From a virus (taxonomy: Duplodnaviria; Caudoviricetes), in IMG/VR virus record IMGVR_UViG_3300026549_000043, positions 1-64,000 of that record: a stretch of DNA of 64,000 bases. The stretch is one strand, 5' to 3'. The notes beneath the pieces were generated by a model. The model was not told where the DNA came from. It ran no database searches and worked only from the letters and a program-made list of their open reading frames with translations. The position numbers and the translations under genes are program-made. Positions 45,314 to 50,766 of the stretch are shown in pieces. Position 1 is the stretch's first letter, and each line of letters opens with the position of its first letter.

Positions 45314-45496
45314 ATGAGATTCTATGTTTTATTTAATAAAAACAAAATGTTATTTTTTAATTCTGTTTTTGAATCTGAGAGAAAAGCTTTAGAATTAGAA
45401 AAAAATCCAAAGATTTATTATTTAGAATATGGAATTGTTAATTACGATGGTTGGATAAATTCCATTATAGCAGTACTTAAATGTGAGGAGAATTAA
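45314..45496 (+). CDS. Hypothetical protein
   Basis: SD GAGGT. Confidence 0.4.
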   Translation: MRFYVLFNKNKMLFFNSVFESERKALELEKNPKIYYLEYGIVNYDGWINSIIAVLKCEEN

Positions 45497-46506
45497 TGAG
45501 CATTTCTTTATCAATTAAATATAGGCCAACTGATTTTGATCAAGTTGTTTTCCAAGAGCCTGTGATTAAAATTTTAAATCAACAGATACAAACAAATTCC
45601 TTTGTAAATTGTTATATGTTTGTGGGACCATCTGGTTGTGGGAAGACTACTATGGCTAGAATTATGGCAAATAAAATAAATAAAGGACTAGGGAGTCCAA
45701 TTGAAATCGACGCTGCTAGTAATAATGGTGTTGATAATGTAAGATTGATTATAGAACAAGCCGATCAAAGATCTCTTGATTCTGAATATAAAATCTACAT
45801 TATCGATGAATGTCATATGCTTACTACTCAGGCCTGGAGTGCTTTATTAAAGTTAATTGAAGAGCCTCCAAAGTATACTATTTTTATGTTCTGTACTACT
45901 GAAATCCAAAAGGTACCTGAAACTATAAAAAATAGATGCCAGCAGTTTAAGCTAAAGAGAATACCTCTTAATCTGATAAAAGATAGACTAGAACATATTT
46001 GTAAAATAGAGAAAATAAATTATTCAGATGAAGGACTAGACCAGATATCTAAATTATCTCTGGGAAGTATGAGGCAAGCTATTTCTTATTTAGATAAGTG
46101 CAAGGATTATTCTGATAAAGTAGACCTTGAAAATACTTTGCAGGTCTTAGGTAATTTCAGTTACGATATTTATTTTAGATTAATAAATGCTATTATTGAT
46201 AAGAATAAGAATGAGATTATTACAGTAATTGAAACTTTATATAATAATGGTGATGATTTAAAATTATTTATAGATTTATTATTAGATTTTACATTAGATT
46301 TAACTAAGTTTATTATTTTTAAATCATATGATATTATTAAAATACCTCAAACGTATAAGAAAGAAATAGAATATACAATCAACGTAGAAAATCCAGGAAA
46401 ATATTATAATCATTTGATTGATAAAATTCTAGAATTAAAACAATTAATTAAAAATGATACCCTGGATAAAACTTCAATTGAAGTATTTCTATTATCAAGA
46501 ATTTAA
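45496..46506 (+). CDS. dnaX: Clamp loader gamma/tau subunit
   Basis: KYRP, GPSGCGKT, EIDAASNNGVD, IIDECHML, EEPP. Confidence 0.93.
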   Translation: MSISLSIKYRPTDFDQVVFQEPVIKILNQQIQTNSFVNCYMFVGPSGCGKTTMARIMANKINKGLGSPIEIDAASNNGVDNVRLIIEQADQRSLDSEYKIYIIDECHMLTTQAWSALLKLIEEPPKYTIFMFCTTEIQKVPETIKNRCQQFKLKRIPLNLIKDRLEHICKIEKINYSDEGLDQISKLSLGSMRQAISYLDKCKDYSDKVDLENTLQVLGNFSYDIYFRLINAIIDKNKNEIITVIETLYNNGDDLKLFIDLLLDFTLDLTKFIIFKSYDIIKIPQTYKKEIEYTINVENPGKYYNHLIDKILELKQLIKNDTLDKTSIEVFLLSRI

Positions 46507-47053: not shown

Positions 47054-47099
47054 TTTATATTTTACATTCCATAATGTATAATAATAATGTAATCAAAAA

Positions 47100-47360
47100 A
47101 AAGATGGGTCAAACTCTTCGGAGTCATTTATGAGGTAATCATATATCACATAACTGTAAGGTAATGCAGAAAACAAAGGTTTTAGAGGTGTGTCAAAATC
47201 TGGGGATAACAGTTTGTAATATGATTACATTTACAGGTACGAGTCTTCCTTGTCTAAACATTAGGCCGTGACCTTAAAGGAAATGCTACCCTGAGTTGCA
47301 ATATGGAAACTCTAAAGCTAGTGTGGCCACACGATCAGTTAGATCTCTGAATAAAAGATC
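47100..47360 (+). ncRNA. Structured non-coding leader RNA, unidentified
   Basis: cUUCGg hairpin 47113-47124; GTAATCATAT(47135)/ATATGATTAC(47219) rod; follows the promoter at 47051. Confidence 0.45.
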
Positions 47361-47365
47361 AACAT

Positions 47366-47463
47366 ACCTCGGTCTTACTGTCCGGTGACAGGAACGGTCT
47401 TCAAAATCGTAGGACACGGGTCCAACCGTGTTTATGAGGGCTCGACACCTTCCCGAGGTGCCA
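47366..47463 (+). tRNA. tRNA with UCA anticodon (UGA reader), tRNA-Sec-like scaffold, 7/5 fold
   Basis: ACCTCGG/CCGAGGT acceptor, G73-CCA; D arm CTGTC-CGGT-GACAG; anticodon loop CT-TCA-AA; 8-bp variable arm; T arm GAGGG/CCTTC. Confidence 0.85.
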
Positions 47464-47466
47464 TTT

Positions 47467-47541
47467 AGATCTTTGGTGTAATGGTAGCACAGCAGTCTCC
47501 AAAACTGTTAGGTGTGGGTTCAAGTCCTACAGGGTCTGCCA
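47467..47541 (+). tRNA. tRNA-Trp(CCA)
   Basis: Cloverleaf; anticodon CCA 47499-47501; GTTCAAGT T loop; GCCA end. Confidence 0.92.
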
Positions 47542-47544
47542 GTT

Positions 47545-48203
47545 TACTCTCACCATACACTGAACGTATGCGTAATAAAGGTTCTACACCGTTCCTAACG
47601 GGTAAATCCTAGCGAAAGCTAAAAACGGTGTTTTCTTTGACAATAAATCTGCAATATGGACTATGACAGGTACCACTTAAAAGTCATAGAGAGACTCACT
47701 GGACAGAAAACCAGTCTGACGACAGAACGTCAGAGACAAATACCACCAAAATAGGAATAGTAAATGGTTTGCAAGTATAGAGTCTAAGCAGATTTAGAAT
47801 AAACCGCAGGAAGTGTGTAGCGGTATAGTAAGTGTCAAACATCTTCTGGTAGGGTGCAGACTCATAACAAAGAATCAGCCACTATCGTCGAATCCTATAG
47901 CCCATGGCTCTAATGGACTATGCGTGAAAGCCTGAAAAGGATAAAAAGAGCCTGAAACGCTAGGTAAAAATGAAGGTATAGGCATCGAGCCAACATTCAA
48001 TTAGTTGCCAAGACCTTAAGAAATGTTAGAGGTCTGAAATCTCAAGATAAAACTGGTGGTGCAGCCTTGAGTAAGTAATGCGAAACGTGCCTTCTGGGGC
48101 TTGCATTGTGCAAGCGACCACCAATAGGGCGGGTGGTAAAACATAGGCCGACTTCCTTGCTTAGAACGCTGAACGTAGGCGTGGATGAAGAAAGACTAAG
48201 TAA
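47545..48203 (+). ncRNA. Large ornate structured RNA candidate A (~650 nt)
   Basis: Nested stems ACACCGTT/AACGGTGT, TTTGACA/TGTCAAA, TAAATCTGC/GCAGATTTA, CTATGAC/GTCATAG, CCTATA/TATAGG, GGCTCT/AGAGCC; GAAA tetraloops; GC-richer and non-coding. Confidence 0.65.
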
Positions 48204-48288
48204 CTTAACAGTGGTGGAATAGGTAGACACTGGGCAATGGTCGACTTGTCGAAGGAAATTATAAGGTGCAAATCCTTATCTGTTAAGA
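48204..48288 (+). ncRNA. tRNA-Leu-like element lacking a normal anticodon arm
   Basis: CTTAACAG/CTGTTAAG stem; Leu-type D arm GTGGAATAGGTAGACAC; T arm ATAAGG-TGCAAAT-CCTTAT. Confidence 0.6.
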
Positions 48289-48377
48289 TAGCTTACGAGT
48301 AACAAATAAACAAACTAGCCGTGGCGAGCTAGGTCGGTGAATATCGACTACAAGTGGTTCGACCCCACCGTAAGCTA
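48289..48377 (+). ncRNA. tRNA-like element with 8/4 (or 9/4) fold and no D stem
   Basis: (T)AGCTTACG/CGTAAGCT(A); T arm GTGG-TTCGACC-CCAC; CTAGC/GCTAG arm with an 8-nt loop; 6-bp variable arm. Confidence 0.6.
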
Positions 48378-48384
48378 TATCATA

Positions 48385-48875
48385 CGTCAGGAGATGTTGA
48401 TTTAAGTCCAACCACTCAGACTGGTTAGAGCCTGAACGAGTGTAGTTTAAGAAAAATCCTGACAAAGTGTTGGTAGACAAGCATTAAAAGTCACTAAGAC
48501 AATAGGAGCTGCGTACATGGTTAAATTGGTGGGTAAGACACCCATACCACAGCAGATGCGTGTGATTGAAACTGCACACCCAACACTATTTCGTTTGGCA
48601 GTGTTCGAGAATAACTGCACACAAAGGGTTCACGATGGTACCTTACTTCACAACCTAGAGCAGTAAAGAAATGCCACAATAGGGCAAAGTAAAGAGACTA
48701 AAGGTAAATCGTTGTAAAAATGGTGATGAAATTGTTGCTCGTCTACGCGCGTAGAAAGAGTATCAGGAGCGTTTAGGCGTTCCTTGCAGTAGCAAATGGC
48801 CTCACGTACAGTACAGTTGGTCAACAGGTAGTAATGGTGCTGCCTGACCAGTGTTGGTTAGCAAAGCTGTACTTT
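48385..48875 (+). ncRNA. Large structured RNA candidate B (~490 nt)
   Basis: Stems GTCAGGA/TCCTGAC, AGTGTTGG/CCAACACT, AGGAGCG/CGTTCCT, AGTACAG/CTGTACT, CAGGTAGTA/TGCTGCCTG. Confidence 0.6.
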
Positions 48876-48880
48876 AACAT

Positions 48881-48951
48881 TTCTCCGTCGTCTAATGGCA
48901 GGACATCTCACTTTGACTGAGACAATAGTTGTTCAACTCAACTCGGAGAAG
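48881..48951 (+). tRNA. tRNA-Gln(UUG)
   Basis: TTCTCCG/CGGAGAA; TCTCA-CTTTGAC-TGAGA; no encoded CCA. Confidence 0.85.
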
Positions 48952-48952
48952 C

Positions 48953-49026
48953 GCCGGATTAGTATAAAAGTATTACACCTGTCTTGTAAACAGGATAAAG
49001 CGGGGCAGTACCGTTATCCGGCCCCA
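48953..49026 (+). tRNA. tRNA-Thr(UGU)
   Basis: GCCGGAT/ATCCGGC, CCA; CCTGT-CTTGTAA-ACAGG; atypical T loop GGCAGTA. Confidence 0.8.
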
Positions 49027-49826: not shown

Positions 49827-50015
49827 ATGATGGATGGATCAATAGTTAAATTTAAAGGAAAATATGGAATTATAAGAATTAAATCTAAGATTATTAATCA
49901 ATATGGTTATAAAAGTTTAAATAATGTTTATTTAGAAGATGGTAGTACTAGAATGTGTAGAGATGATGAATTAGAGGTATTAAATAATGATAGGACAAAA
50001 GAAGTTGAAGAATAA
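49827..50015 (+). CDS. Small hypothetical protein
   Basis: Lies behind the promoter at 49791. Confidence 0.4.
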   Translation: MMDGSIVKFKGKYGIIRIKSKIINQYGYKSLNNVYLEDGSTRMCRDDELEVLNNDRTKEVEE

Positions 50016-50766
50016 GATTGATACTTTTACTATTAACAATTTTCCTCACTCAGTTTTATTATTAGGCGAATATGGCTCTGAAAAAGAAGAAATCTGTGAA
50101 TATATCTCATTGAAGTTAGATATACCTACTTATGATATTACTAATCTAATCTCAGAGGAATATATTCATGATATATACTCAATGTTAAATTATGGGATTT
50201 ATATAATAAACTCTAATGAGATATCTGAGAGAGAGCAGAATATTTTATTAAAATTTTTTGAAGAGCCTAATCAATATATTTATATTATTTTATCGGCTGA
50301 AAGTAAAGCTAATTTATTAGATACTATTATCACTCGAAGTTATGAGATGAAGTTAGATAAATATTCTAAAGAAGAATTAATTCCTTTATGTAAAAATGAA
50401 TTAATCGATTTAGAACTAGAGCTAGCTAGTACTCCAGGGATGGTAGAGGAATTAAACCATTTAGATTTAAAGGCTTTAAATACTCTATGTGAAAACATAG
50501 TTAATAAATTATCGGTAGCTAACTATCAAAATACTCTTACTATAACAAATAAGATTAACTTTAAGGATGAATATGATAAATTCCCTCTGTGGGCCTTTGT
50601 TAAAGAATTAAGTAATGTTATTCTTAGATACATTTTAATCAATAACGAAATTAACCCGAACCTCTATTGGTTAATCAGTGATTTTAGAAAAAATTATATT
50701 TTCATGAATGACAAAAAAAGATATTTTGAAAATTTACTAACTAGAATGTGGTTGGAGGTTAGATAG
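49987..50766 (+). CDS. holB: Clamp loader delta-prime subunit
   Basis: MIGQ, PHSVLLLG, QNILLKFFEEP, LLDTIITRS; degenerate Walker A. Confidence 0.8.
   Translation: MIGQKKLKNKIDTFTINNFPHSVLLLGEYGSEKEEICEYISLKLDIPTYDITNLISEEYIHDIYSMLNYGIYIINSNEISEREQNILLKFFEEPNQYIYIILSAESKANLLDTIITRSYEMKLDKYSKEELIPLCKNELIDLELELASTPGMVEELNHLDLKALNTLCENIVNKLSVANYQNTLTITNKINFKDEYDKFPLWAFVKELSNVILRYILINNEINPNLYWLISDFRKNYIFMNDKKRYFENLLTRMWLEVR

Follow-up and report, generated by a model that had tools for sequence, protein, structure and literature searches.

ROOL and GOLLD are large phage RNAs that are abundant next to tRNA islands and form RNA-only cages; assemblies of this type are homo-oligomers held by intermolecular kissing loops and A-minor contacts. 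The tRNA cluster of phage T4 encodes two small stable RNAs, C and D (~120-140 nt), which are released by the tRNA-processing machinery. A symmetric kissing loop, with 9 nt in the loop, is known from the HIV-1 dimerisation initiation site. For ROOL, self-assembly through kissing loops has been described, with the 5' and 3' parts of the molecule intertwined (10.1101/2024.12.08.627333), and palindrome switching in OLE L9.3 and GOLLD L21a has been taken as support for intermolecular bridges (Kretsch et al., 10.1101/2024.12.08.627333).

We analyzed a window of 64,000 nucleotides, i.e., the first 64 kb of the IMG/VR record of an uncultured phage, which has 139,874 bases and an estimated completeness of 83% (IMG/VR). 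An initial annotation had likened the segment 47545-48203 (module A) to ROOL and GOLLD in size and location. This likeness stands insofar as a conserved structured non-coding RNA lies in a phage tRNA cluster; it does not extend to the covariance models, neither of which matches. Similar to ROOL (RF03087), module A is a large, multibranched, ORF-free phage RNA that adjoins tRNA genes (the array runs from tRNA-Trp to tRNA-Gln), and in other phages ROOL shares tRNA arrays with module D and with the cassette described below. The parts of ROOL are intertwined, whereas module A appears to be a chain of self-closed, variable domains. The features shared with GOLLD (RF02032) are the tRNA-island context, a size of 600-800 nt and more, the combination of conserved and variable parts, and a loop that switches between palindromes (L21a in GOLLD); in contrast to GOLLD, module A has no match to the model and no shared conserved 3' domain. 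As a non-tRNA RNA encoded in a phage tRNA operon, it can also be compared, by description alone, to the stable RNAs C and D of T4, although the locus studied here is far larger and modular. A loop with a 6-nt self-complementary sequence, P2a, resembles OLE L9.3, GOLLD L21a and the HIV-1 site, which makes P2a a candidate for dimerisation; the P2a loop has 15 nt, compared to 9 nt in HIV-1. The kind of object is known (a large structured phage RNA in a tRNA island), whereas the families and their modular, exchangeable build are absent from Rfam.

The RNA island and searches for known families

The G+C content of the window is low (0.25-0.33), and every long ORF is on the + strand. A 2.2-kb RNA island, which contains no ORF of note, has a G+C content of 0.39-0.44 compared to 0.25-0.30 in the surroundings, and is flanked by a clamp-loader gene and a HolB-like gene (Table 1). 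The segment 47545-48203 had been described as non-coding and GC-richer. Both statements are correct: the segment has the same elevated G+C content (0.39-0.44 versus 0.25-0.30 around it), and no + strand ORF is longer than 50 aa with translation table 11 or table 4. Hidden coding with TGA read as Trp (table 4) was rejected, since the longest + strand ORF has 50 aa. The segment had also been placed between tRNAs. This holds on the 5' side, where it follows a genuine tRNA-Trp; on the 3' side, it borders at 48204 on a tRNA-like element called neither by ARAGORN nor by Rfam, and the next true tRNA is tRNA-Gln(UUG). Both flanking tRNAs are complete.

Table 1. Coordinates of the features of the RNA island and its flanks in the window
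Feature	Position	Strand	Description
DnaX-like clamp-loader gene	45496-46506	+	5' of the island
Promoter-like sites at island head	47054-47088	+	Consensus scan, 10/12 matches; candidate operon transcript start
Sec-like tRNA, anticodon UCA	47366-47459		Upstream of tRNA-Trp; Rfam tRNA-Sec 39.3 bits, cut-off 47
tRNA-Trp(CCA)	47467-47541	+	ARAGORN; Rfam tRNA 60.1 bits; 5' boundary of the 47545-48203 RNA
Bracket hairpin	47557-47573	+	Motif CTGAACGTA(T/G)GCG; direct repeat D2; second copy 48166-48182
H1 three-way junction	47586-47631	+	8-bp closing helix, small hairpin, GAAA-capped hairpin
P2 multibranch domain	47644-47796	+	9-bp closing helix (inverted repeat I13); contains P2a and P2b
Hairpin P2a	47661-47689	+	15-nt loop with 6-nt palindrome 47669-47674; candidate kissing-loop site
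Type-1 cassette	47798-47968	+	170-200 nt structured motif; row 1 of alignment A2
P3 four-way junction	47973-48093	+	7-bp closing helix, three inner hairpins, invariant junction strands
3' hairpin cluster	48094-48203	+	Contains second bracket copy
tRNA-like element B	48204-48287	+	Inverted repeat I9; 8-bp acceptor-like stem, Leu-type D arm, T arm, no anticodon arm
tRNA-like element C	48288-48378	+	Inverted repeat I10; 10-bp acceptor-like stem, T arm, no D stem
Rest of island	48387-48880	+	D0, module D, T-loop-like hairpin and module E, up to tRNA-Gln at 48881
Domain D0	48387-48462		Closed by 6-bp helix
Module D	48466-48587		Self-closed RNA, 125-300 nt
T-loop-like hairpin	48597-48618		5-bp stem, 13-nt loop
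Module E	48626-48872		Ends before tRNA-Gln
tRNA-Gln(UUG)	48881-48952		Next true tRNA 3' of 47545-48203; ends the array
Further tRNA	48953-49023		Directly 3' of tRNA-Gln; Rfam tRNA 43.6 bits; missed by ARAGORN
HolB-like gene	49987-50766	+	3' of the island

The promoter-like sites at the head of the island have counterparts in the relatives: there is a site with 11/12 matches at the island head of L002, and a consensus-like hexamer pair upstream in L105 (related contigs are designated by our own L and G numbers). It should be noted that in the consensus scan the number of promoter-like sites in the window was not above that in shuffles. No + strand terminator was seen in the island, and the promoter-like sites at the island head, taken together with this, suggest that co-transcription with the tRNAs is probable.

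Compared to shuffled controls, the folding energy of the segment is only marginally better: the MFE has a z-score of -2.1, and none of the 20 shuffles folds as well. Because this gain is modest, the case for structure rests on covariation rather than on energy. By cmscan, no assignment of the segment to any of 4227 Rfam families, ROOL and GOLLD included, was obtained, in agreement with the initial annotation, which had left it unassigned. In a search with all 4227 families of Rfam 15 at the gathering score, only tRNAs were found in the window, and searches at E<=10 on 3-kb and 1.3-kb slices around the segment yielded nothing relevant. The ROOL model (cut-off 99.1 bits) had no match in the window and none at E<=1 in the whole 139.9-kb record; as a positive control, the same model scored 198-323 bits on seven other phage contigs (L112, L114, L115, L120, L145, L146 and L155). 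The GOLLD model, which represents the conserved 3' region (cut-off 150 bits), had no match at E<=10 in the window or in the whole record. A group I intron was considered because the relative L105 has an HNH ORF in module D; this ORF is located outside the equivalent of 47545-48203, the P3-P9 core of Intron_gpI had no match at E<=10, and the flanking tRNAs are complete, with no split exon. A group II intron was also rejected, with no Rfam match to the domain models at E<=10 and no match to the group-II-D1D4 model in the whole 139.9-kb record. BLAST searches against 50,697 GenBank phage records yielded tRNA matches only, and those against 5,426 E. coli genomes no match; the sole nhmmer match to the E. 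coli rrnB operon was a tRNA.

Domains of the RNA and their variation among relatives

Related loci were collected by way of the clamp loader, by scanning IMG/VR for DNA patterns and by one scan of the JGI metagenomes; among these loci, about 13 distinct contigs carry the RNA of 47545-48203. The RNA is framed by the two copies of the bracket motif, and a related motif is found in the leaders of L002, L003 and L094. Of the H1 closing helix, both strands are changed in L003 and L125. In L105 and L095, one inner hairpin of H1 has another sequence and 4-5 bp instead of the 3 bp of the window; in L094, 60 nt are inserted into it. The second inner hairpin retains a GNRA loop. Several GAAA tetraloops had been reported for the segment, of which we retain a single clean GAAA hairpin (47610-47621), the other GAAA strings being located in junctions. 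In relatives of the L002 type, H1 and P2 are separated by an AT-rich insert of 130 nt, which contains a promoter-like site and is flanked by short duplications.

The initial annotation had nested an inner helix, with at least four hairpins, inside an outer helix, TTTGACA (47636-47642) with TGTCAAA (47833-47839). Both strands are present in the sequence; however, as a closing helix the pairing is not conserved in L094 or L137, though both share the downstream part. The inner 9-bp helix that had been proposed, TAAATCTGC (47644-47652) with GCAGATTTA (47788-47796), is present and is supported by the relatives. The P2 architecture recurs in the MFE folds of seven relatives. L094 has the same P2 stem capped by a 2-nt loop, i.e., a clean deletion of the interior, and L137 (record G044) has a compensated helix of different sequence at the position of the P2 stem. 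Within the domain, helix P2b (47692-47697 with 47780-47785) exists in four different complementary versions among the relatives.

Adjacent self-complementary bases are unable to pair within one loop. The palindrome in the P2a loop is GGUACC in the window, L003, L105, L095 and L125; GGAUCC in L002; and GCCGGC in L126, L127, L130, L131 and L133. These are the only three variants, the position is the same throughout, and self-complementarity was kept through two changes; given the substitutions, a palindrome would by our estimate survive two such changes by chance in about 1 of 27 cases, which is suggestive. The palindrome is flanked by an A on each side, and the loop self-duplex was computed at -11 to -15 kcal/mol. 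This pattern of variation suggests that two copies of the RNA may pair with each other. The loop is also complementary over 8 nt to 48636-48643 in module E, and relatives without E have other loop palindromes. Kissing between these two sites was rejected, as the E segment is predicted to be locally paired, and L095 has the loop without that part of E.

The middle third of the segment is a cassette with a distribution of its own. A scan of IMG/VR with a pattern made from two invariant strands (GGACUAUGCGUGAA and CUGAAACGCU) found it in 21 stretches, mostly contigs of 85-290 kb, and at least 20 other phage contigs have it; no match was found among prokaryotes (one genome each of 185,579 species). 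The alignment of 15 distinct copies (A2) has 31 pairs in 7 helices, with 96.3% of the cells paired. There are compensatory changes in 15 of the 31 pairs, compared to 6.7 +/- 1.5 in shuffles; none of 500 shuffles reached 15, and slid controls gave 1-4. The copy in the window has all seven A2 helices and the invariant strands. Retention of 96% of the pairs across 15 divergent copies points to selection on the fold, and the alignments indicate that the cassette is a separately inherited, well-supported new motif. Wherever the surroundings were scanned, it is located inside tRNA arrays; a true ROOL was found on the same stretch in 3 of the 10 contigs scanned. The cassette is missing from the L002, L003 and L105 versions of the RNA, which have a 55-nt hairpin or other inserts in its place, and L094 has both the cassette and the 55-nt hairpin, in tandem. 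Since at least 20 other phage contigs have the middle third (47798-47968) alone, and relatives exchange sub-domains, the segment does not behave as a single, indivisible ornate RNA.

For P3, RNAalifold on nine sequences (alignment A1) yielded 25 pairs with 100% of the cells paired. Five pairs are changed on both sides, a number reached by 13 of 500 shuffles, with 0-2 in slid controls. One whole P3 hairpin is replaced in the L002 type. A P3 model (R1) found its own clade only, with no match in 47 other phage records searched, G044 included. The L003 type has no 3' hairpin cluster, and part of the cluster is replaced in L105. The core domains H1, P2 and P3 are known from only four or five independent lineages; thus, the covariation there is thin.

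Conservation among phages and the modules downstream

The blocks of the RNA are 82-100% identical across phages, whereas the coding flanks either reach 64-73% identity or are not alignable, and tRNA-Trp of the same relatives is 84% identical. In L105, the blocks are 83-98.5% identical (98.5% for the P3 junction), although its 10 kb of flanking genes have no similarity, even by tblastx. Judged by these comparisons, the RNA blocks are the most conserved sequence in these phages. The conservation is a mosaic, in which high-identity blocks break sharply into unrelated sequence, and the near-identity could be explained by strong selection, by recent exchange or by both. Relatives swap, delete or insert whole sub-domains, and the three core domains stay in order: each of the 11 contigs with enough upstream sequence, L105 among them, has H1, the P2 stem and P3 together and in one order. 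Pattern scans of IMG/VR and the metagenomes returned no case of H1, P2 or P3 apart from the others. Searches for wider homologues of the core, by three degenerate pattern scans of IMG/VR, one metagenome scan and a covariance model applied to 50 phage records, returned the same narrow clade only.

No tRNA, tRNA-like or T-loop element was found inside 47542-48203, whereas such elements part the modules downstream. The tRNA-like elements B and C are called as tRNAs neither by ARAGORN nor by the Rfam tRNA model. In L002, L126 and L131, longer inserts take the place of the middle of B, and C is 96% identical in L002. Element B, at 48204, is a candidate 3' processing boundary. The T-loop-like hairpin, which may be a punctuation or processing element, varies in location: it follows module D in the window and P3 in L003, and L105 has one copy after D and another after E (1590-1620 and 1995-2025). 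The first hairpin of D0 loosely recalls, by eye, helix 43 of 23S rRNA; mimicry of rRNA or of the L11 site by D0 was not supported, as nhmmer --max against E. coli rrnB matched a tRNA only.

The outer helix of module D (6-8 bp) covaries freely; the module further has a 3-bp helix that encloses an invariant loop of 12 nt and a 5-bp helix with an invariant loop of 10 nt, and both of these helices covary. Module D has no Rfam match. It occurs alone in 16 further phage contigs (within L109-L124), 3-6 nt from tRNAs, like a tRNA slot, and in prokaryote genomes it was found in one 2-kb MAG contig only. In L105 (1055-1564) and L095, its variable arm contains an ORF of 169 aa with its own Shine-Dalgarno sequence, which encodes an HNH_3/NUMOD1/NUMOD4 homing endonuclease, and this insertion parts the conserved halves of the module by ~700 nt. 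Module E was found only together with module A. L112, L114, L115, L120, L145, L146 and L155 combine a true ROOL with module D or the cassette in one tRNA array; in addition, a tmRNA is encoded in L145 and a skipping-rope RNA in L155.

One RNA or several

The reading that we prefer, and hold to be somewhat probable, is that 47545-48203 is a conserved, non-coding, structured RNA of an uncatalogued kind in a phage tRNA operon, which would act in trans as a single molecule of ~660 nt. Its chain of five or six self-folding pieces would run from a three-way junction through a multibranch domain and an inserted cassette to a four-way junction and a hairpin cluster. The RNA would be transcribed together with the tRNAs from a promoter near 47054-47088, and tRNA-processing enzymes (RNase P and RNase Z) would cut after tRNA-Trp (47541) and at element B (48204), releasing a ~660-nt RNA; element C is perhaps cut too. 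The freed RNA would pair with a second copy through the loop 47669-47674 and, by analogy with ROOL and GOLLD, might act in trans during infection, either as an RNA particle or as a decoy linked to tRNA or translation. Since its single strands are invariant and its folds preserved, the RNA may act by its shape, i.e., in a ROOL/GOLLD-like assembly or as a decoy for a host tRNA-handling factor. The co-occurrence of H1, P2 and P3 in order, and the lack of a punctuation element inside 47542-48203, argue for a single RNA of ~660 nt; conversely, the closing of every domain on itself argues against it, as does G044, where a P2-like stem and the cassette are located between two tRNAs.

The last two points lead to the possible, if doubtful, alternative that no 650-nt molecule is made and that several small stable RNAs are cut from the operon transcript: H1, the P2 domain with the cassette (~325 nt), and P3 with the hairpins, comparable to the small stable RNAs of the T4 tRNA cluster. 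A precedent for such a unit is seen in G044, where a P2-like stem followed by the cassette takes up the whole 312 nt from tRNA-Ala to tRNA-Leu, and model R1 does not find P3 in that record or in any other of the 47 phage records. The cassette is found in tRNA arrays of other phages, e.g., directly 3' of a tRNA in L145; the neighbouring module D stands alone between tRNAs in many phages; and the insert with a promoter-like site between H1 and P2 in the L002 type suggests that the domains may be separate RNAs. However, no processing signal (tRNA, tRNA-like or T-loop hairpin) was recognisable between the domains within 47542-48203; the failure of the IMG/VR and metagenome pattern scans to find the three core domains apart also counts against it. 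The opposite departure from a ~660-nt molecule, a giant RNA of ~1.34 kb (47542-48880) in which the tRNA-like elements, D and E are internal, as in GOLLD with embedded tRNAs, is improbable in our view. It would account for the colinear order of the blocks in every relative, with the array always ending at tRNA-Gln(UUG), for the restriction of E to arrays with module A, for the direct joining of A to D or E in L003 and L105, without tRNA-like elements between them, and for the presence of the entire A-D-E array in L105 amid unrelated neighbouring genes. The 8-nt complementarity between the P2a loop and 48636-48643, with other palindromes in relatives without E, would also fit; against this, the E segment is predicted to be locally paired, and L095 retains the loop without that part of E. 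There is no conserved long-range helix: the two best candidates, 48019-48031/48872-48884 and 47709-47719/48416-48426 (I3 and I5), are at chance level (~1.4 and 0.55 expected, by our estimate) and are not kept in relatives. Moreover, module D is self-closed and stands alone in 16 other phage contigs, and L002-type arrays have no E, with a real tRNA-Met in its place.

The sharp borders between near-identical and unrelated sequence, and the 92-100% identity to L105 despite unrelated flanks, could also mean that the island is a recent mosaic of selfish or neutral cassettes, spread by recombination and homing endonucleases and merely tolerated as spacers in a tRNA operon. The HNH_3/NUMOD homing endonuclease ORF inside module D of L105 and L095, and the short duplications at the L002 insert, are of the kind expected from such spread. 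Nevertheless, a mosaic without function is very unlikely: blocks that differ keep their helices by compensatory change, with invariant loops and junctions; the cassette keeps 96% of its pairs in 15 divergent copies; and indels are delimited by helices, as in the P2 stub and the H1 insertion of L094. Still less credible, to the point of being nearly dismissible, is the idea that the RNA is a divergent form of something already classified, whether ROOL, GOLLD, a group I or group II intron, RNase P RNA, tmRNA or a mimic of rRNA. The tRNA-island context, as in ROOL and GOLLD, and the homing endonuclease ORF in a loop of module D in a relative would agree with it; the searches of 1.3-3 kb at E<=10 in Rfam, those of the 139.9-kb record with the ROOL, GOLLD and group-II-D1D4 models, the complete flanking tRNAs with no split exon, and the matches limited to tRNAs (rrnB by nhmmer, phages by BLAST, none in E. 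coli) all speak against it.

If the preferred reading of a single trans-acting RNA is taken further, module A might be a third independent class of large phage RNA, in which an RNA-only homo-dimer or higher assembly forms via the kissing loop 47669-47674, the domains are tradeable and the cassette is a portable ligand- or protein-binding domain; we regard this as unlikely and put it forward only tentatively. At the level of the locus, unrelated RNA families are added to the niche of ROOL and GOLLD. The comparisons suggest that large phage RNAs can be built of separately inherited domains, traded between unrelated phages, and that the RNA domains are held far more constant than the proteins or tRNAs of these phages. 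The 170-nt cassette, with strong covariation and invariant single strands, is a good target for work on structure and partners, and the covarying palindromic loop makes self-association directly testable.

Several minor observations concern shared strings and the 5' side of the island. Strings of the type CUGAA(A)CG are present in loops or junctions of several modules (47560, 47950, 48079, 48169 and 48432) and may represent a tertiary motif common to these modules or a site for a protein. The copies of the Sec-like tRNA in L002 (8081-8179) and L094 are called tRNA-SeC by ARAGORN, and this tRNA(UCA) may serve in UGA reading in a recoded phage. The non-coding block 5' of it (47213-47365), which is 83-87% identical in L002, L126, L130 and L133, is probably another structured module; an exact 11-mer is common to this block (47297-47307) and to the P2 junction (47650-47660).
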